Below, piece by piece: positions 1 to 57,179 of a DNA stretch of 64,000 bases (position 1 is the stretch's first letter; every line of letters starts with the position of its first letter). The translations under genes and the position numbers were made by a program. Source of the stretch: Escherichia phage A221; the sequence record ON862890.1; one strand, written 5' to 3'. The notes beneath the pieces are model-generated. The model saw nothing but the letters and a program-made list of their open reading frames with translations. It was not told the origin of the DNA and ran no database searches.

Positions 1-14
1 TAGGGGTATTTGAA

Positions 15-3000
15 ATGGCTAATAAACCAACACAGCCTGTTTTCCCTCTCGGTCTGGCGGCTGAAGAGCAGTCTACTTTGGCTGGTGTCCTCAACACGGG
101 TACGATTGAGCATGGACCAGATGCTGTCCTGACTTTACCCGAGGGTAATGCCAGCGCAGGACTCCCGTCTTCCGTTCGCTACAATGCCGACTCCGACGAA
201 TTTGAGGGCTTCTATGAAAATGGTGGATGGTTGCCGCTGGGTGGCGGTGGTATCCGCTGGGAAGTCCTTCCGCATGCCTCTACGGCAACGCTCACTGAAG
301 GGCGAGGCTATCTCATTAATAATACCACAGGGGCATCTACAGTGGTTCTCCCTTCCCCTACGCGTATTGGGGAATCCGTTACTATTTGTGATGCTTATGG
401 GAAATTTGCCACTTACCCATTGACCGTGTCTCCTTCTGGAAATAATTTGTATGGCTCCACTGAAGACATGGCTATAACAACTGATAACGTATCAGCAACG
501 TTCACTTGGTCTGGACCTGAACAAGGTTGGATTATTACATCCGGCGTCGGTCTTGGCCAAGGTCGTGTCTATAGTCGTGAAATCTTTACAAAAATTTTGG
601 CGTCTGAAACAAGTTCTGTCGCTCTCAATACTCCACCAACAATCGTGGACGTGTATGCTGACGGAAAACGTCTTGCGGAATCCAAATATTCACTAGATGG
701 GAATGTAATCACTTTCAGTCCTTCTTTGCCAGCCAGTACAGAACTTCAGGTGATTGAATATACTCCTATTCAATTGGGTAATGGCGGTGGTTCTAGTTCT
801 TCTACGATTACTTGGGTCTATAATGGGGGTTCAGCGATTGGCGGTGAAACCGAAATCACGTTGGACGTCGTTGTTGACGATGTTCCGGCCATTGATATAA
901 ACGGAAGTCGCCAGTATAAAAATCTGGGATTCACATTCGATCCATTAACCAATAAAATCACTCTTGCGCAAGAACTGGAACCAGAGGATGAAGTTGTTGT
1001 AATTATCAATGGAACACCAAACATCTATAATCAAATTGATTATACTTTGCGGGAAGTTGCTCGTGTAACCAATGTTAAAGATACAGAGGTCGTTTATTTT
1101 AGTGTTGGTGCTGCGTTAAGTGGGTATAAAGTTATTTATGACAAGGAGACGCAAAGGGCTTATCCCTTGCCTGCTGATATTGTCCCTGGTACTACTGCTG
1201 TCAGCCTTAGTTCTTCCGCTGTACTTGTGCATTCCGCGGGTTCTGTAGATCTCGGGGAATTGGCTGTATCTCGTGAAGAGTACGTCACATTGTCCGGGTC
1301 ATTTGATACCGGTGTAACAGTTAATACCAAGAATGAACTGGTTGTTTTTACTGACAGCAAGTACCGTTGGGATGGTACATTACCTAAACAAGTCCCAGCA
1401 GGTTCAACGCCTCAGTCTACTGGTGGTATAGGTAAGGGTGCTTGGGTTAGTGTTGTTCGTGGCGTAGTAGTACCACAGCTTAGTGAAGAGTTGAAACGTT
1501 CCTATGCGCGTTCAGGTTTAAACCTAGTAGGGGATTTCAACGCAGGGGCAGTAATTCAGAACGTATCTGAAGCGTTGCTGGATACCCGTACTGGGAAGGT
1601 ATATACGGTAAGTTCCAGTGCTTCTTTCCCCCTGAGTGTTGTATCGGGTACTAACCCTGAGGCCAGTCCTGACTTATATCTAGAGGCCACTGCAATAACT
1701 TCTAAACATTATATAGACCCTACGGATTATGGTATACTCCCAGGTAATACGGCAGCAGTAAACTCTACTCGCCTGAAGGCATTGATTGAACAAGTTAACA
1801 CTTCTGGTGGCATTATCAAATTCCCGGCAGGTACTTACAATGTAGGGGATATTAGTAGTAATTGGAAAACTGTTGGGGTATGGACTAATGCCCTTGCACG
1901 AGGTATAGAAGGTGCCGGCCCGGGATTAACTACCTTAGTAGTATCTGCACCTGCCTCAGGTAATGATATCTTCACAGGAGGCGGTTACTGGATGTCCTTT
2001 AAGGATATCAGCTTTATACTAGATACTTGGGTTCATACTTCGGACTATACAAGCAGTTCGTTCGGCTCTACCGTAAACTTGTTTAATATGCTTACAGTAG
2101 GCTCGCCTAGATTGACGTTAAGTAATGTACGTGCTGTTGGCTTTAATATGGCATTCGGGTTCTGGACTTGGGTATCAGTGATTGAGCACTGTGAGGCCCA
2201 GCAATGCAGGTACGCCTTTGTATTTAATAAAGGTACTAGCATAACAGCTAACTCCCTGTACGCTCAGGATTCATGGTATGCTTATATTATTGGGGCTACT
2301 CCTAGTAATTTTATAACAGATCCTAAATCCGACTCCAGCATGATTCGAGGTGGACTCTACTATAGCACTCTCCAGAACTGTGCTTGCGACAGAACTGTTA
2401 AAGCAGGTTACACCGTAGGCGAGTACGACGGCTCCCTTATCTCATGTGGCTCGGAGATTCCTTATGAAACTGCAGCTAATATTCATAGAGGTATTGTAGA
2501 CTACCCTCCTCTTGTAGATAGTGCAGGTTCTCCGTCTGTTATTACTATGGACAGTAATACTATTATACAGGAAATGCATGTACTTAGCAATCTTACAGTC
2601 TTCCGCACCGGTGCAGGTATAGTTAATATCCGCAGAAATAACCCTACAGTTCATATCCAGGGACTGATTTCCCGGCAAGGTAATGCAGGTGCAGGTGCAG
2701 GGCTTATTAATCTTCTGACTTTCGATAGAGCAGTGACTACGTGCAACGTTACAGTAGATGGTCGTCTGCAGAGCTTGTACGGTCGCAGCATTAGCTTTGG
2801 CGCACTGTATGGAAGTACCGTACAACGTAGGTGGCACGGTGAGGCTGTACTTACATGCGACAGTATCAGTACATACTTAGGATACAATACGCCTCTGATG
2901 AACTTCGGATTCACTAACCATGCTCTCAGAGGTAACGGTAAGCTCAGGTTTGCGTTGACTGGTACAAGCAACGTAGATAGTCGTGCATTAATACACTGCA

Positions 3001-3317
3001 CTATAGGGGACATTGCGTCGCAAGCCAGCTTATATAACTTCCTAGGTACAGTAACTATCCGTGCAGTATATACAGCGGCTTCACCTAATGACCCTAACCT
3101 TACTTTTGCGCAGGCATATGTAAACGGTAATATGAGTTCTGAGGTTTCAGTAGCTATTGAAGACAGTACCCGTAATGCCGGAGGCAAGGATGTGGTTCTG
3201 ACATTCAGTAGTAACAGTGGTGTGTACTTAAGGGCTTACACTGTACAAGCTGAAGTTACTACAGGTGCCCGGTGGGTTGACGGCAGTGCTCCTAAGTATC
3301 TGGCGTGGGTGGAGTAA
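15..3317 (+). CDS. tailspike protein 1 (putative polysaccharide depolymerase, beta-helix type)
   Basis: 1100-aa ORF; ATG at 15 in ggggtatttgaaATG context; N-terminal MANKPTQP module; internal VVYFSVG/GYKVIYDK/QRAY module shared with ORF 6099-8396; C-terminal FPAGTYNVGD pectate-lyase-like signature. Confidence 0.65.
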   Translation: MANKPTQPVFPLGLAAEEQSTLAGVLNTGTIEHGPDAVLTLPEGNASAGLPSSVRYNADSDEFEGFYENGGWLPLGGGGIRWEVLPHASTATLTEGRGYLINNTTGASTVVLPSPTRIGESVTICDAYGKFATYPLTVSPSGNNLYGSTEDMAITTDNVSATFTWSGPEQGWIITSGVGLGQGRVYSREIFTKILASETSSVALNTPPTIVDVYADGKRLAESKYSLDGNVITFSPSLPASTELQVIEYTPIQLGNGGGSSSSTITWVYNGGSAIGGETEITLDVVVDDVPAIDINGSRQYKNLGFTFDPLTNKITLAQELEPEDEVVVIINGTPNIYNQIDYTLREVARVTNVKDTEVVYFSVGAALSGYKVIYDKETQRAYPLPADIVPGTTAVSLSSSAVLVHSAGSVDLGELAVSREEYVTLSGSFDTGVTVNTKNELVVFTDSKYRWDGTLPKQVPAGSTPQSTGGIGKGAWVSVVRGVVVPQLSEELKRSYARSGLNLVGDFNAGAVIQNVSEALLDTRTGKVYTVSSSASFPLSVVSGTNPEASPDLYLEATAITSKHYIDPTDYGILPGNTAAVNSTRLKALIEQVNTSGGIIKFPAGTYNVGDISSNWKTVGVWTNALARGIEGAGPGLTTLVVSAPASGNDIFTGGGYWMSFKDISFILDTWVHTSDYTSSSFGSTVNLFNMLTVGSPRLTLSNVRAVGFNMAFGFWTWVSVIEHCEAQQCRYAFVFNKGTSITANSLYAQDSWYAYIIGATPSNFITDPKSDSSMIRGGLYYSTLQNCACDRTVKAGYTVGEYDGSLISCGSEIPYETAANIHRGIVDYPPLVDSAGSPSVITMDSNTIIQEMHVLSNLTVFRTGAGIVNIRRNNPTVHIQGLISRQGNAGAGAGLINLLTFDRAVTTCNVTVDGRLQSLYGRSISFGALYGSTVQRRWHGEAVLTCDSISTYLGYNTPLMNFGFTNHALRGNGKLRFALTGTSNVDSRALIHCTIGDIASQASLYNFLGTVTIRAVYTAASPNDPNLTFAQAYVNGNMSSEVSVAIEDSTRNAGGKDVVLTFSSNSGVYLRAYTVQAEVTTGARWVDGSAPKYLAWVE

Positions 3318-3437
3318 GCGCAGGAGTAAGTGCACCTGCACTGCACCCCCCTGTACTACCTGATTACGTACAGGCATAGTGTGTGTCCTGAGTGCGCGTG
3401 TAAACGTGTCACTTAAAAATGATATACTCACCTGAGG

Positions 3438-3513
3438 CCCTCCCTCACCCTCAACGCGCCCAATTGCCCCCATAGGGGGGTGGCCTAGGGAAAACATAGG
3501 GGGTGGGGGAGGG
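3438..3513. repeat. C-tract / G-tract imperfect inverted repeat enclosing CCCCC-ata-GGGGG palindrome
   Basis: ccctccctcaccctc (3438-3452) is complementary to gggggtgggggaggg (3499-3513) allowing two G-U pairs; palindrome at 3467-3480 between the arms. Confidence 0.6.
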
Positions 3514-3661
3514 TTTTGTTGTACCTCAAACAATCCTTTATGCAGACTGTTTTAGTCAATCTCGACTTAACTAACCTGAGAAAGTCCCTATGGGAAATGA
3601 ACCAGATAACGTAACTCTAGCTAGACTCGAAGAGAGACTAAGAAACATTTTCGAAAACCAA

Positions 3662-3690
3662 AACCCCGCTCTGGCGGGGTTCTTATTATA
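3662..3690 (+). terminator. intrinsic terminator-like hairpin
   Basis: ACCCCGC-tctg-GCGGGGT stem-loop followed by tcttatt. Confidence 0.55.
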
Positions 3691-3718
3691 TCCATGTTCA
3701 TAAATTTTATTAGTTCAG

Positions 3719-3725
3719 GCTAAAT
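3719..3725 (+). promoter_or_regulatory. late-promoter-like motif CTAAATA(cccc)
   Basis: CTAAATAcccc 38 nt upstream of tailspike 2 start; recurs before seven other genes. Confidence 0.5.
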
Positions 3726-3762
3726 ACCCCATATTGGCAAATCCTCTATGGGGTATCTTCAA

Positions 3763-6051
3763 ATGACCAGAAACGTCGAGAGCATCTTTGGAGCGGTCGT
3801 AACAGCTCCGCACCAGATTCCATACACTTACACAGCAACGGGCGGAGAGAAGTTTATCTCCCTCCCTTTCTACCCTGTCACTGGTATAGTCACAATCAAC
3901 GGTGGTATGCAAGTTCCGTTAGACAACTTTGAAATCGATGGAAATACGTTGAATCTCGGACGCGCATTATCCAAAGGTGACGTTGTGTTCTGTCTGTTTG
4001 ACAAGATTCTGTCTCCAGAAGATTATAAAACCGGGATTCGAATCTATAAGTTTAAGGCTATAGGAGGTGAAACCGAGTTCACTCCTGATTACACATCTTA
4101 TGGAGTCCAATCTCTTTATATCGGTGGTGAGTACAAAACACCCGAAATTGAATATTCCTATGACAGCGCGACAGGGAAAGTGTCTTTGCAAACTGCACTG
4201 ACTGCAGGTGTTTGGGTAGTCGCTGAGATGTCTGTTAAACAACCGAATATCAGTCCGTTGTTTGACCGAAGTATTCAAGAAATCGCCCGTTCAGCTAATG
4301 TAAAAGACTCTGAAGTAATTCTCAGCACTGATACTACTCAGTCCCTCAATGGTAAGAAGGTTGTTTACTCTGTTAATGAACAGAAGTCTTATGGCTTGCC
4401 GTCGTTACCGTCCAATGTCTATATTGGCTCCGTATCCAATGGGCAGTTAACCTATAATCCTGGTCCTATTACAGTCCCTCTAGTTGAAGTGCCTGATTCG
4501 GCTGCCAAGTTGAAGAGTGAACTTGCTGCCAATACTGGGTCAAGTATGATTCATACTAGCTCCGGTGACACTGTTGAAGAATCTCTTGTTAAGTTAAAAG
4601 ACTCTTTCCGATTCGTAACTCCAGAACAGTTCTATGAAAATCATCCAGGGGAAACTGACTGGGCCGTTATGATAAATGAGGCATACGCATATGCTCGTTC
4701 AAATAATAAGAGCGTGTTGCTTGCCAATGACTACAATATATCTTCAAGTGTCATACACTATGATGGTTTGAATGTTTTATGCACAGGTAGAATCATAGCT
4801 TCCCCTTCCGGGAATTACACTTTTACCACTGCGCAAAGTAACACAGAGAACGCTGCTTATATTATTACTACAGAAAATGGAGTGTTTAATAATGCTAAGT
4901 CTGCCTCTGTTACGGGACTAACCTTAACATACACCGCGAACAGAGAGCCTTCCGGCTACACTGACCAGCATATTGCTTCGAAAGGAGTAGTAATTACCGA
5001 CATAGCTAATGTGTATATACGCAATCTACAAACTTTCGGCTTTCTTAACGGTGGGGTTGACGTTGGAGGGGTTTCTGGGAAAGGTTACGAAATAGTAATC
5101 GACAAATGTTTATCATGGATTCACGCATGGGAGGATTCAGAGAAGATCGGTTTCCGTTCTAATGTAACCGATTCAACATTCAAAGATGTAGTAACCGTCG
5201 CTTACGGTATCGGAATTCACGATGTAAAAGGTAGTGGTACAGTTTTTATCAACCCTCACCCGTGGGGTTATCCTGTAACTTCAACCGATTCATCCCAAAA
5301 ATACCCTAATATGCAGTGTAAAATACCGTTTCTCATTTCTGGTAGCGCTTCAACTTTCATTAGGCCTTACGCAGACACTGTGACAAAAATTAACAGTTCA
5401 CTTGGCTCAAGTAGGTCAAACGGTGGTGTAGGGTTTTACATAGAGGGTTGGCGTAATAAGATAATAGCGGGGAATGCGTTGATCCATCCGGAAGACGTAA
5501 ACACAAACATGGCTTTGGTGTATTTTAAAGGAGAGTCTGCCAGAAATGAGATTGAAATTGCAGATGTAATAAATCCATCTAAGTTAATTGTTGAAAGAGC
5601 ATCATACGACTCTGGTCATCAAGATGCATTGTTTACTAACCTTGTTAGGCTCCCTGAGTATATCGCTGGTAATTTAAGCAATCTTACAGGAAGCATATCA
5701 TTCGATGGCGCAGGAATAACTTCTTCCGGCACATATAGTTTACGCAGAGACGGTGAATACATAGACATTTCTTTACTTATTAATGTGACGGCAATTTCCA
5801 GCCCTTCGGGTTCGTTATCCGTTACTCTGCCTCGTGGACTTAAGTGCTATTTTGGGCCTACATCAGAACCAAGCCAGAATTCCTGCTTTGGGAACATCAA
5901 CCAAAGCAACATTGGGGTAATAGCTGTTTTGAACGGCAGCTCTATAGAATTCTTTTATAAAACGGCAAATGGTTCAAGAACCCAAATTAACGCAGCAGGT
6001 GTATCAACTGGCGCTCTTGAGCTATCCATACGTGGTAAGATTAGTAATTAA
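3763..6051 (+). CDS. tailspike protein 2 (putative depolymerase)
   Basis: 767-aa track ORF from 3748; ATG 3763 preferred by ggggtatcttcaaATG context matching gene 1; CTAAATA motif 28 nt upstream; Ser/Thr/Gly/Asn-rich beta-helix-like C-terminal half. Confidence 0.55.
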   Translation: MTRNVESIFGAVVTAPHQIPYTYTATGGEKFISLPFYPVTGIVTINGGMQVPLDNFEIDGNTLNLGRALSKGDVVFCLFDKILSPEDYKTGIRIYKFKAIGGETEFTPDYTSYGVQSLYIGGEYKTPEIEYSYDSATGKVSLQTALTAGVWVVAEMSVKQPNISPLFDRSIQEIARSANVKDSEVILSTDTTQSLNGKKVVYSVNEQKSYGLPSLPSNVYIGSVSNGQLTYNPGPITVPLVEVPDSAAKLKSELAANTGSSMIHTSSGDTVEESLVKLKDSFRFVTPEQFYENHPGETDWAVMINEAYAYARSNNKSVLLANDYNISSSVIHYDGLNVLCTGRIIASPSGNYTFTTAQSNTENAAYIITTENGVFNNAKSASVTGLTLTYTANREPSGYTDQHIASKGVVITDIANVYIRNLQTFGFLNGGVDVGGVSGKGYEIVIDKCLSWIHAWEDSEKIGFRSNVTDSTFKDVVTVAYGIGIHDVKGSGTVFINPHPWGYPVTSTDSSQKYPNMQCKIPFLISGSASTFIRPYADTVTKINSSLGSSRSNGGVGFYIEGWRNKIIAGNALIHPEDVNTNMALVYFKGESARNEIEIADVINPSKLIVERASYDSGHQDALFTNLVRLPEYIAGNLSNLTGSISFDGAGITSSGTYSLRRDGEYIDISLLINVTAISSPSGSLSVTLPRGLKCYFGPTSEPSQNSCFGNINQSNIGVIAVLNGSSIEFFYKTANGSRTQINAAGVSTGALELSIRGKISN

Positions 6052-6056
6052 ACAAT

Positions 6057-6078
6057 CCCCTCTTCGGAGGGGTTTACT
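6057..6078 (+). terminator. intrinsic terminator-like hairpin
   Basis: CCCCTC-ttcg-GAGGGG followed by tttact, just after tailspike 2 stop. Confidence 0.55.
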
Positions 6079-6098
6079 AGAAAAACAAAGAGGTTGTT

Positions 6099-8396
6099 AT
6101 GAACGAAATGTTCTCCCAAGGCGGTAAAGGCTCTACTGGTATTCTTACCAATAAGCAAGCCATTGCTCGTAAGTTTGGTGTTAAGCAGAATGAAGTAGTC
6201 TACTTTTCTGTGGGAGTGGATTTAGGTGGTTACAAAGTTATTTACGATAAGACTACTCAGCGTGCTTATTCATTACCTGTACTTCCGGTAGGAACCACTG
6301 CTGTAAGCCTTAGCAAACAGGCAATCCTGGTTCATTCAGCAGGTACAGTTGATTTGGGTGAACTGGCTGTCACACGTAGGGAATTCGTGTGTTTATCTGA
6401 CTCTTTTGCCACTGGTTTGGTAGTGAATACCAGAAATGAGCTTCTGGTGCATAATGGCATTGGTTATACCTATTTAGGTACTCTACCTGTAACAATTACC
6501 GCAGGAACTAATCCAGTTGACAATGCGGACTGGAAGCCACAGACAGATCCTAATTTACGGGAAGAATTAGCGTCTGACTCCGGCTTCCAGCTGGTTCCGT
6601 CTGTTGAAAAGCAACGATGGCTTTACGCAGGGGATGTGCGTGCTTTTGGAGTTGTCGGTGATGGGTCTGATGAGGCATCTAGTTTACAGTTAGCCATTAA
6701 CTCGGGTAATGTTTTTGTTCCCCCGGGCATGACGGTTTCTCATTCACAAGTTAACATACCAAAAGGTACAATTTTTACTTTCGGTCACGATGCTGGGTTG
6801 ACATCATTGACCGCTAATGCTCTTAATTTTGTCAGCGAGAGCCAATTCAGCTTGCTTTCCCCCGCAGCTTTCGGAGCAACGTCCATCACATTAACATCTG
6901 AGGTGACAGGAACTGGGTATACCCGGGCGTTGATAATACGCACTGAGGACACAAGTGACGCTTGGTATATTGCCAACGCACAGAATCCGGATGTAACCGG
7001 ATACCAAGGCGAATCTTTTTTAATCTCGTCCATATCAGGTGCTACCGTAAATTTAGCAACGGCTTTACCGTGGGACCTAACTACCACCAATTCGGTTATT
7101 TATCTTATAAAAGGCAACGCTACTAAGTTCATCGGGGGAATCTTAAAAAATTCTGCGTCAGGGTCTAGCTACATGTACCAATCTGTGGGGGCTTCGCTTA
7201 TAGAGTTCCATGGTACTGTTTTTGATTATAATGGAAATGGCGGTTCAAGGCATGATAACGCGTACGGTGTGGTGTACCACAACACTACCCATACCGGGCG
7301 TGTCGGAAATGGTAATATATTTTTTGGTTACGGATCTACAGATTGTACTGTTACAGGTACGACCCACATTGGAGGGACTGGTGGGGATGCGCAAATAATA
7401 TCTTATGCTGGCTGCCGTAACATCCGTACATCCCATAACACCCTAAAACCTACGGCCAACAACGGAGGTATATATTTTGGTGCAAAATGCTTCGACTGCA
7501 ACACCCATGCTGATTATATTAAAGGCGGAAAGTATGGGGTTATGGGGGCATTTGGTGCTCAGCGTATTGTTGTGGACTCGCTGGCGGCAGACGATCAAGT
7601 ATCAGGCGTTATCTTTATGGAGCAATGCCAGAACTTTACCATCACAAACCCGTCTATTAGATTCATAAAGACTGGCACTCAAACAACCGCTGCGATATTA
7701 ATTAAGGACTGTGATTATGTGACAGTGGATGCAAATGTCCCTGTAAATACAGGGGCGAACGGGTATATAGTCAGTATGTATAGCGCGCCTGCATACGCCC
7801 TGACAGTTAGAAAAAATATAAACATTACGGTAAAAGGTACTGGCAGTGTATACCTTACTAGCCCTATGACCAATTTCTCGATTAAAGACTGTTTAACATC
7901 TGGCAATATAACAGTTTACTACGCCAATGGTACGTCTACTTACGGCAGGGTTACGCGTAATAGTTGCCGGTTTTTAGTAGCTCAAAGTTTCCAATATTGT
8001 GACATAGATAGTAACACCATTGCGGGGGCTTCTGATTCTGAGGGTATACGCCTCGGTGGTAACTGTAGATGGAACAACGTATATAGAAACAAGGTTAGCG
8101 GGGTTACTACGGCATTCTTCGTTAACTCAGCACCCGCAAATCTATACACGAATGCATTTCATGATGATAACGTAATAGATTACTCAACAGTAACCACCTT
8201 CGTATCATCTCAGACTGGAACCACCACGCCAGTTACTGGAGCTTTAAACCCTGCTCCAGTAAGGAATTTCTTTCTCCCGGCAACAGGTTGGCAGGATAGC
8301 CCTACGGTAAAAAGAACTGTTAGTGGCTGGAGGCATAAAGGCACTACAACAGGCACAGCGTCCGATTGGTTTACTATCCCCTCGCCAGAAGCGTGA
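6099..8396 (+). CDS. tailspike protein 3 (putative depolymerase, pectate-lyase-like)
   Basis: 765 aa; RBS aaagagg; N-terminal module about 60% identical to residues 355-445 of ORF 15-3317; AFGVVGDGSDEASSLQLAINSG motif typical of pectate_lyase_3-type tailspikes. Confidence 0.65.
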   Translation: MNEMFSQGGKGSTGILTNKQAIARKFGVKQNEVVYFSVGVDLGGYKVIYDKTTQRAYSLPVLPVGTTAVSLSKQAILVHSAGTVDLGELAVTRREFVCLSDSFATGLVVNTRNELLVHNGIGYTYLGTLPVTITAGTNPVDNADWKPQTDPNLREELASDSGFQLVPSVEKQRWLYAGDVRAFGVVGDGSDEASSLQLAINSGNVFVPPGMTVSHSQVNIPKGTIFTFGHDAGLTSLTANALNFVSESQFSLLSPAAFGATSITLTSEVTGTGYTRALIIRTEDTSDAWYIANAQNPDVTGYQGESFLISSISGATVNLATALPWDLTTTNSVIYLIKGNATKFIGGILKNSASGSSYMYQSVGASLIEFHGTVFDYNGNGGSRHDNAYGVVYHNTTHTGRVGNGNIFFGYGSTDCTVTGTTHIGGTGGDAQIISYAGCRNIRTSHNTLKPTANNGGIYFGAKCFDCNTHADYIKGGKYGVMGAFGAQRIVVDSLAADDQVSGVIFMEQCQNFTITNPSIRFIKTGTQTTAAILIKDCDYVTVDANVPVNTGANGYIVSMYSAPAYALTVRKNINITVKGTGSVYLTSPMTNFSIKDCLTSGNITVYYANGTSTYGRVTRNSCRFLVAQSFQYCDIDSNTIAGASDSEGIRLGGNCRWNNVYRNKVSGVTTAFFVNSAPANLYTNAFHDDNVIDYSTVTTFVSSQTGTTTPVTGALNPAPVRNFFLPATGWQDSPTVKRTVSGWRHKGTTTGTASDWFTIPSPEA

Positions 8397-8414
8397 CTTA
8401 TAACTGTAAAACTA

Positions 8415-8440
8415 AGACCCCATTTGGGGTCTTTTCTTAT
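8415..8440. terminator. bidirectional terminator-like hairpin
   Basis: AGACCCC-attt-GGGGTCT with T-runs on both strands; after tailspike 3 and at the 3' end of the minus-strand open frame. Confidence 0.55.
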
Positions 8441-8760
8441 ATAGAATTTACTGTTTGCATTACCCTAATTGATACTGCTGTTAAGGTGATTACTTGCCCA
8501 GAGATATTAAACATACCCAATTGAATACCTTCTACCATGAAAGGGTCTGTCGAACCAAGTGTGTAAGTGGCTAATACGTTATCTCTGTTGGCAATGTCTG
8601 TACCCTGTACCTTAACACTAGCATCTGAACCTACTACTGTGGTTCCATTGGTTCGCCTTGTTTGCGTTCTCCATTCCCTGGCTGTACCAGCACCCCTGCA
8701 ATAGTTCCTGAAGAATGCGGAGGTCTCGAATCCATGACCATAACCGCAGAAAGATAATCA
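8437..8760 (-). pseudogene. start-less open frame (about 106 codons), possible decayed or frameshifted gene
   Basis: Minus-strand frame is open stop-to-stop with protein-like translation ...GTTVVGSDASVKVQGTDIANRDNVLATYTLGSTDPFMVEGIQLGMFNISGQVITL... but lacks a start; an ATG-initiated 35-codon frame upstream (8741 to 8634) is offset by one nucleotide. Confidence 0.3.
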
Positions 8761-8785
8761 AAGCCCCTTCGGGCTTATTTCTTTC
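8761..8785 (+). terminator. terminator-like hairpin inside noncoding spacer
   Basis: AAGCCC-cttc-GGGCTT followed by atttctttc, 20 nt before the late promoter motif. Confidence 0.45.
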
Positions 8786-8806
8786 TATTCCTCGGTTGGT
8801 TGTATA

Positions 8807-51413: not shown

Positions 51414-51788
51414 ATGAAAAAGTTAATCCTCGCTGTTGCCCTGCTGGGCGCTTCCTTTGCTGCTGTTTCCGCCCCTCCTGTCATCACCGGAGTGTCTACC
51501 AACGGTGTTTATGCTTTCAAGGCGTATGGCCAAGACCTCGTTCTGTATAAGAACGGGAAGATGATTGAGCGCTGCGTATCAGACGACGTGAATCGTGGGA
51601 TCGACAATCAGGGTAGCCCATACGTCCTGGACATCTATTCCTGCTCCAACGGGACGAAGTCCTTTGGCGTCAAGACCTTTGGCAACGTCGCCGACGGTGG
51701 CTGGGGCTTCATGTTCGAAACCCGCAACCACCACCCGGTCAAGACCATGCAAGAAGAGTTCTTGATCTCTGTCGGGGGTACGTTATGA
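51414..51788 (+). CDS. putative secreted protein (signal peptide)
   Basis: ATG at M8 of track ORF (codon 1 TTG); MKKLILAVALLGASFAAVSAPP is a signal-peptide-like N-terminus with AxA-type cleavage site. Confidence 0.45.
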   Translation: MKKLILAVALLGASFAAVSAPPVITGVSTNGVYAFKAYGQDLVLYKNGKMIERCVSDDVNRGIDNQGSPYVLDIYSCSNGTKSFGVKTFGNVADGGWGFMFETRNHHPVKTMQEEFLISVGGTL

Positions 51789-57127: not shown

Positions 57128-57179
57128 TTCTATCTGACGCGCGGCCAGGCTCTGCAATCAGGGCATGGCAAAAGAGAAA

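Follow-up and report, generated by a model that had tools for sequence, protein, structure and literature searches.

The window analyzed here, a stretch of 64,000 nt from Escherichia phage A221 (ON862890.1), belongs to an Ackermannviridae (Aglimvirinae) coliphage, for which the nearest records are RPN242, AV101, and PC3/PH4, 96-97% identical over the shared parts. Unless stated otherwise, all features described below lie on the plus strand. At the left edge of the window, the tailspike 1 gene (15-3317) encodes a chimeric protein of 1100 aa, in which an Aglimvirinae N-terminal anchor, with the Pfam domain Tail_spike_N at residues 417-480, is joined to a foreign receptor-binding part. The next tailspike gene (3748-6051; 767 aa) follows after a spacer of 430 nt. 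In RPN242 (L033) and PC3 (L004), an extra tailspike gene is located between tailspike 1 and the homolog of the 3748-6051 gene, and the window is without it (positions 1-8800 compared).

The spacer carries a C-tract, CCCTCCCTCACCCTC (3438-3452), a G-tract, GGGGGTGGGGGAGGG (3499-3513), and, between the two, the palindrome CCCCC-ATA-GGGGG(G) (3467-3480), which is present as a single copy in the window. The sequence-only reading, in which these tracts were first pointed out, gave correct coordinates for all three, and its pairing of the tracts over 15 positions holds as well, with 13 Watson-Crick and two G-U pairs. RNA folding predicts a three-tier hairpin (3434-3517) composed of an outer stem (3434-3452 with 3499-3517; solid part 3438-3452 with 3499-3513), a middle stem (3459-3461 with 3488-3490), and an inner stem (3464-3471 with 3476-3483). 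This hairpin is genuine and far beyond chance: the fold reaches approximately -52 kcal/mol over 96-106 nt, with z-scores of -2.8 to -3.0 (-52.1 kcal/mol and z = -3.0 for 3430-3525 folded as RNA), its stability is matched by none of 200 dinucleotide shuffles, and it is also retained when the whole spacer is folded. Furthermore, among 6,390 overlapping 100-nt segments of the window, it ranks first for stability on both strands, at -52.4 kcal/mol compared to a mean of -23.2 (sd 5.4), and stands at -5.1 sd after regression on GC content. Other very stable 100-nt folds, in the range of -43 to -45 kcal/mol, are found on the plus strand near 57131, 58831, 63201, and 20231 and on the minus strand near 51651; none of these corresponds to a tRNA or an Rfam family.

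The only long frame across this region, on the minus strand (3228-3533; 101 codons), was dismissed in the sequence-only reading as a product of the homopolymer tracts, and rightly so. The frame is open and a gene caller marked its counterpart on a metagenomic contig described below, but it starts with TTG, is of low complexity (PPPPP, GEGG), overlaps the 3′ end of tailspike 1, and has no PHROG or other family match, so that the probability of it being protein-coding is negligible.

A search of 50,697 phage genomes revealed where the hairpin region comes from. By blastn, positions 3300-3520 match 264 phage records, 223 of which are Klebsiella phages, with E-values down to 5e-22, and the matches are located at genome ends or in annotated terminal repeats. 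The megablast matches are confined to the 42-45 kb genomes of Drulisvirus (KP34-type; Autographiviridae), with 81-88% identity over 90-130 nt, and the blastn matches to Drulisvirus extend to position 3514. The core motif was also detected in 25 stretches from IMG/VR, all 25 on Drulisvirus-sized contigs or fragments thereof; the sequence that these have in common reads GTGCACGTCTATACCTGGACCTGAAATTTATTAGACTCACGCGAGCCCCT up to the start of the terminal repeat and CCCTCACCCTSAACGCGCCCAATTGCCCCCATAGGGGGTGCCTAGCG...TTTAGGGGGGGGGG from there on. The similarity is not limited to the low-complexity tracts, as a core of 46 nt (3434-3479), spanning both the repeat start and the palindrome, matches the Drulisvirus consensus exactly, and the right-end sequence upstream of the core is still ~65% identical to that of Drulisvirus. 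In terms of alignment, positions 3384-3441 are homologous to the unique sequence that, in KP34-like phages, immediately precedes the right terminal repeat, and positions 3442-3513 to the initial ~70 bp of the direct terminal repeat in Drulisvirus, as delimited by the annotated repeat starts.

Several observations place this homology at a genome end. The match in KP34 begins 69 nt past the stop codon of the last gene, gp57, which occupies the tailspike/depolymerase slot, and spans the boundary of the right direct repeat as annotated; the corresponding distances are 34 nt from the last gene in ZH5 and 66 nt from the stop codon of tailspike 1 in the window. Because the terminal repeats of KP34, AttikonH4, and KPPK108.1 are annotated to start at CCCTCAC, CCTCAC, and CTCAC, positions 3442-3444 are the counterpart of the physical genome end. 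Consistently, the IMG/VR copy of KP34 opens at the annotated repeat start. Terminal repeats of 222 bp have been determined experimentally in another member of Drulisvirus (PMC7291057). The homology reaches to the left of the repeat start (3384-3441), and the corresponding structure is therefore the right end or a concatemer junction rather than the left end. We also considered whether the right-end motif might be a repeated phage promoter, and rejected this candidate: its counterpart occurs once in the KP34 genome and is therefore a unique end-proximal site. With the homology and the correspondence to annotated genome ends both established, the hairpin region (3384-3513) is, as far as alignment can tell, a fossil of the right genome end or concatemer junction of a KP34-like phage.

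The hairpin is part of this inheritance. The three-tier fold is predicted in 21 of the 22 distinct Drulisvirus copies, and the pairing between the C-tract and the G-tract in the window, with 19 contiguous pairs, is better than in any of the 22. The complementary tracts and the palindrome are inherited from the donor and did not evolve in the present genome as an RNA gene. Among KP34-like phages themselves, a nearly invariant, hairpin-capable element of ~90 nt straddles the right terminal-repeat boundary (KP34, L002 4030-4125; loci L008-L032). Its components are a C-tract, ACGCG/CGCGT, the palindrome CCCCCATAGGGGG, and a poly-G stretch that varies between 9 and 14 nt. We did not find a function for this boundary element described in the literature searched; it is possibly a terminase recognition region.

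The Drulisvirus ancestry bears directly on whether the hairpin is an RNA in its own right, as the sequence-only reading had suggested. What stands of that suggestion is a hairpin that would form in the 3′ UTR of the tailspike 1 mRNA; a dedicated structured RNA is opposed by the lack of an Rfam match and by the absence of the element from all close Ackermannviridae relatives. At gathering scores, Rfam returned no matches in the entire window, and a permissive search of the region against Rfam 15 yielded mir-3138 as the best hit, whose 27.5 bits fall well short of the threshold of 90 and indicate no more than a generic GC-rich hairpin; the tRNA scan was likewise negative. When 18 sequences (17 Drulisvirus copies and the window) were compared with RNAalifold, the covariation term was +0.22 and the pairs were essentially invariant. 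Such near-invariance of the left arm and the palindrome would fit a DNA site recognized by a protein at least as well as a conserved RNA structure.

In its most specific form, an RNA gene would be a stand-alone hairpin RNA of ~85 nt, transcribed from an extended -10-like motif, TGATATACT (3420-3428), starting at the base of the hairpin around position 3435, and ending at the U-run that follows the stem. The motif indeed lies at the right distance, and both the hairpin and the U-run are in place. However, seven extended -10 motifs occur in the window compared to 2.4 expected, which makes a single one at this site weak evidence; a -35 element is absent, and scanning for promoters gave no match. 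Moreover, TGATATACT, situated within 3384-3441, is a diverged copy of the conserved Drulisvirus right-end sequence, an Rfam family and copies in relatives are missing, and the almost invariant pairs show no covariation. We therefore regard a small RNA gene as unlikely.

Similar considerations apply to the G-quadruplex that had been proposed as an alternative structure, or to a regulatory element in which the G-tract, or the C-tract on the other strand as an i-motif, would be the active part. The G5-T-G5-A-G3 sequence together with GGG at 3488-3490 fits a relaxed G-quadruplex motif, with one loop of 8 nt, and the C side fits a relaxed C4 motif, but canonical G-quadruplexes (four runs of at least three G, loops of 1-7 nt) number zero in the window. 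Even when G-quadruplex energies are included, the hairpin is the minimum-energy fold, because the complementary C-tract lies 46 nt away. In addition, the G-run is inherited from Drulisvirus terminal repeats, in which its length varies between 9 and 14. A role of this kind is thus highly improbable.

To the right of the hairpin, the spacer has a different origin. The block 3505-3665 is ~90% identical to the spacer located after the tailspike gene gp63.1, together with the 5′ end of gp63, in G7C-like podoviruses, and it includes the run TTTTGTTGT (3514-3522), which abuts the hairpin and represents the first bases of the conserved G7C-type arm. The G7C-like matches begin at positions 3497-3514, that is, within the G-tract, where the homologies of the Drulisvirus type and of the G7C type overlap and the right crossover is probably located. 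In G7C-like genomes, a G-rich tract is likewise found just before TTTTGTTGTACC, for example, GAGGGAGGGGC, GAGGGGAGGGGG, or TAGGGGTGGG. Within the arm, a 37-codon ORF (3590-3703) is a remnant of the N4-like gene gp63: 24 of its first 25 residues are identical to G7C gp63, after which the sequence diverges, runs into the terminator, and reaches a stop. The ORF gives a weak match to phrog_5211, and the match to gp63, a protein of about 110 aa, covers the first 25 residues only. Accordingly, the statement that the ~400 nt downstream of tailspike 1 hold no credible ORF has to be amended for this recognizable remnant. Gene gp63 is native to ~72-kb N4-like genomes, with 338 homologs, and the 3505-3665 block with the gp63 stub is also present in the Aglimvirinae phages PC3 and AV101. 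In the exchange of tailspike cassettes with G7C-like podoviruses, the stub apparently provides the right-hand homology arm. The Drulisvirus piece was found neither in the reference genomes of G7C-like phages nor in any of 10 further contigs identified via gp63 homologs. Some G7C-like contigs contain a long extra insert with GGCTCATTGCCTC between the tailspike gene and gp63 (L178 2768-2930, L180 2751-2930, and L185 2664-2930), with folds of -50 to -75 kcal/mol; this insert may be another hitch-hiking scar or a mobile element.

The spacer ends with a small canonical terminator (3662-3691), consisting of an 8-bp stem, a 4-nt loop, and a T-rich tail; the terminator scan recovered it as 3662-3681 plus the tail, in agreement with the terminator near 3662-3690 proposed previously. 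It is followed by CTAAATAC (3720-3727), a candidate phage late-promoter motif located 28 nt upstream of the next tailspike gene. This motif is found in five copies in the window, all on the plus strand (3720, 15318, 27437, 34245, and 37442), compared to 1.2 expected, and for three of the five, the first ATG of a long ORF (3748, 15348, and 27471) follows at a distance of 28-34 nt. The T4-type late promoter, TATAAATA, was considered as well and rejected, since it is not in use around these genes. A 10-bp inverted repeat, ATACCCCATA...TATGGGGTAT (3724-3757), overlaps the promoter-like motif and the ATG at 3748. PC3 and RPN242 carry further copies of a ~95-nt block (3661-3756) in front of other tailspike genes.

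The boundaries of the acquired segment can be read from the points at which identity to different relatives starts and stops. Positions 1-1428 are 97% identical to tailspike 1 of RPN242; past position 1428, homology to RPN242 and PC3 is lost, and it is regained at 3514 in PC3, 3505 in AV101, and 3661 in RPN242. The intervening cassette (1429-3513), which includes the receptor-binding domain and a 3′ flank with the whole hairpin, is absent in the closest Aglimvirinae relatives. Among 5.8 billion proteins, the receptor-binding domain has a single homolog, a 776-aa tailspike that is 97% identical and is encoded on a 72,006-bp Logan contig (SRR28483859_17872; L034) with the N4/G7C gene order. The cassette is 96-99% identical to this contig as far as position 3456. 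In the coding part, identity is 79.5% over 1073-1272 and, from 1273 onwards, mostly 97-100%, with one 200-nt bin at 91%; in the 3′ flank (3318-3456), it amounts to 99.3%, and for the first portion of the flank (3318-3383), the contig is the only relative. Because identity to the contig jumps from 79.5% to 98-100% at ~1273 and identity to the Aglimvirinae relatives ends at 1428, the left crossover can be placed between 1273 and 1428, inside the Tail_spike_N coding region. The contig stops inside the element, at ...CCCTCACCCTCAACG, corresponding to position 3456, and the complete hairpin and the composite arrangement have therefore been seen so far only in the window. The break may be due to assembly trouble at the GC-rich hairpin or to k-mers shared with a co-occurring Drulisvirus. 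In the contig, the tailspike stop codon TAA (window 3315-3317) reads CAA, and the protein is four residues longer.

Attempts to trace the cassette further were made with several types of queries. For the receptor-binding part, tblastn against the 50,697 phage genomes produced one match, of 27%, in a P22-like phage, which carries little information, and a peptide scan of IMG/VR returned nothing; the depolymerases of ZH5 and KP34 were considered as its relatives and rejected, as they show no similarity, and no Drulisvirus with a related receptor-binding domain was found. Neither the composite, in which the start of the terminal repeat is followed by the G7C arm, nor the donor-specific flank was found in IMG/VR or in JGI metagenomes, and the databases searched contained no Drulisvirus piece of this cassette in Ackermannviridae. 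The exact proteins of tailspike 1, tailspike 2, and the 37-aa ORF are not on record. An origin from the E. coli host was likewise discarded, with no match in 5,426 E. coli genomes.

We consider it likely that the 430-nt spacer is a mosaic of scars, left by recombination where a horizontally acquired tailspike module ends on its 3′ side, and that the hairpin is best accounted for as a terminator or 3′ hairpin. According to this scenario, a piece of a Drulisvirus right end, comprising the unique right-end site, the repeat start, and the initial ~70 bp of the repeat, palindrome and G-run included, would have hitch-hiked with the 3′ end of a tailspike gene, because in Drulisvirus this element directly follows the last gene, which encodes the depolymerase/tailspike. 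By the same token, from the fixed position of the flank after the last gene, we infer that the receptor-binding domain itself may have come from Drulisvirus; against this stands that no Drulisvirus with a related domain was found. The fossil would then have been joined, at the G-run, to the beginning of the spacer behind the second tailspike gene of G7C-like podoviruses, which is G-rich and has a T-run; a crossover within G-runs is suggested by the overlap of the two homologies at 3497-3514 and by the G-rich tracts in G7C-like genomes. Finally, the whole block would have entered the Aglimvirinae myovirus by double crossover, on the left within the conserved Tail_spike_N coding region and on the right within the G7C-type spacer and the gp63 fragment. 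The order of these transfers is presumptive, and the detection of the full composite in the window alone counts against the scenario. The tailspike gene missing from the window compared to RPN242 and PC3 fits a double crossover that used Tail_spike_N of tailspike 1 as the left arm and deleted one gene.

Whether the inherited hairpin has acquired a role in its present location is a separate question. The most probable function, although we assign it somewhat less than an even chance, would be that of an intrinsic terminator or a protective 3′ hairpin of the tailspike 1 mRNA, co-opted from the inherited sequence. This role is favored because a GC-rich stem adjoins UUUUGUUGU in the 3′ UTR of tailspike 1 and because relatives have their terminators in the same slot. 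Indeed, the stem ends at 3513 and the T-run follows immediately, at 3514, downstream of a gene on the same strand, yielding the stem-plus-U-run configuration of a terminator, and PC3 and three G7C-like contigs have canonical terminators that use the same T-run as their U-tract. The next gene, in turn, has a promoter-like motif of its own. Furthermore, a terminator-like hairpin is found after every tailspike gene in the window, and each of these genes therefore looks like a separate transcription unit. The hairpins after the second and third tailspike genes are CCCCTCTTCGGAGGGG (6055-6076) and AAGACCCCATTTGGGGTCTTTT (8417-8436). Against the terminator role, the U-run after the hairpin is not continuous, the hairpins that G7C and AV101 have in this slot are only weak and do not reach significance, and a canonical terminator is present 150 nt downstream, so that the large hairpin may be redundant as a terminator. 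Its outer stem encloses 46 nt, outside the range of compact terminator hairpins (stem of about 5-14 bp, loop of 3-8 nt), and a simple terminator scan does not call it.

Nearly as likely is that the hairpin is purely an inert scar, transcribed within the 3′ UTR of tailspike 1, devoid of function, and persisting only because the transfer was recent. The presence of the element in just one phage and one metagenomic contig would be expected in this case, and the canonical terminator 150 nt downstream points the same way. Similarly, the combination of a 100%-conserved core with flanks of ~65% identity mirrors the conservation pattern within Drulisvirus itself, and no selection in the recipient has to be invoked. 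Inertness is, however, harder to reconcile with the stem adjoining a U-run precisely where relatives have working-looking terminators and with the G-tract/C-tract pairing that, as described above, surpasses all Drulisvirus copies.

The exact match of the 46-nt core also raises the question of whether the element is still active as a DNA site. If it had kept the site that KP34-like terminase recognizes and cuts, the genome would be cut just behind the tailspike gene during mixed infection, and the resulting recombinogenic end would promote cassette exchange. Besides the identity of the core (3434-3479) to the Drulisvirus consensus, the location of the element exactly at the cassette boundary would suit such a mechanism. 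By contrast, identity drops to ~65% in the upstream half of the right-end sequence, and the junction with the G7C-type arm lies at the G-run, ~70 bp inside the repeat, rather than at the cut site; we consider present-day cutting most improbable. The broader notion that the fossil is a portable cassette end, which, by being cut or by nucleating recombination, drives the exchange of tailspikes among three phage families, is in our view very unlikely.

The swapping of tailspikes between phage families is already known at the protein level; in the present case, a record of it can still be read in the non-coding flank. Within the tailspike locus of an Ackermannviridae phage, part of an Autographiviridae genome terminus adjoins part of a Schitoviridae gene, and this juxtaposition points to a chain of transfers across three families. 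The right-hand homology arm is non-coding, consisting of the T-run/G7C spacer and the gp63 stub. The locus further hints at G-runs and terminator stems as sites of crossover. The locus also calls for caution in annotation, because the most stable hairpin in 64 kb is either inherited junk or a co-opted terminator, and not an RNA gene. Finally, it directs attention to KP34-like therapeutic phages, in which an almost invariant element able to form a hairpin is located at the boundary of the terminal repeat.

Compared to the right-end junction of KP34-like phages, the window presents the same components in the same order, namely, the right-end motif, the CCCTCAC terminus, AACGCGCCC, CCCCCATAGGGGG, and the G-run, and they are likewise placed directly after a tailspike/depolymerase gene. 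However, here the element is internal in a large myovirus genome, between two tailspike genes; it is present once in the 64 kb; its upstream half has diverged; and it ends at the G-run, ~70 bp into a repeat that measures 216-297 bp in KP34-like phages. The element in the window is thus a fragment and cannot be a functioning genome end.

The left end of T7 provides a more distant parallel. The palindrome CCCCCATAGGGGG is common to the terminal repeats of KP34-type phages and T7, at the same offset of +26 from the genome end: T7 starts with TCTCAC and carries CCCCCATAGGGGGTACCTA from base 26 of the repeat, and both T7 (L006 1-45) and KP34 (L002 4055-4100) combine a (T/C)CTCAC end with the palindrome CCCCCATAGGGGGT(A/G)CCTA at base 26. 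The T7 repeat differs in being without the flanking C-tract/G-tract pair, and there is otherwise no sequence similarity. A scan of IMG/VR for the 14-nt palindrome returned mostly chance matches besides contigs of the T7 and Drulisvirus types, and only general remarks on terminal repeats were found in the literature on T7 and Drulisvirus ends.

With the PC3 terminator, AGCCCTGCTTTGGCGGGGCT-CTTTTTGTTG, the hairpin shares the slot, the T-run, and a GC-rich stem directly upstream of it, but PC3-type terminators have an 8-bp stem and a tetraloop, whereas the hairpin in the window is nested and spans ~80 nt. G7C-like phages (Gamaleyavirus, Schitoviridae) resemble the window in that TTTTGTTGTACC in their gp63.1-gp63 spacer is adjoined by a terminator stem or G-rich tract; in the window, by contrast, only 25 codons of gp63 are left, and a terminator is fused to them. 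Conserved N-terminal domains have been proposed to mediate the exchange of tailspikes in Ackermannviridae (PMC8432352; PMC11414711). The searched text of PMC11414711 does not contain the words "non-coding" or "terminator," and neither a non-coding 3′ arm nor a fragment of a podovirus terminal repeat was found described in it. The left crossover within the region coding for the N-terminal domain is in agreement with the exchange published there.
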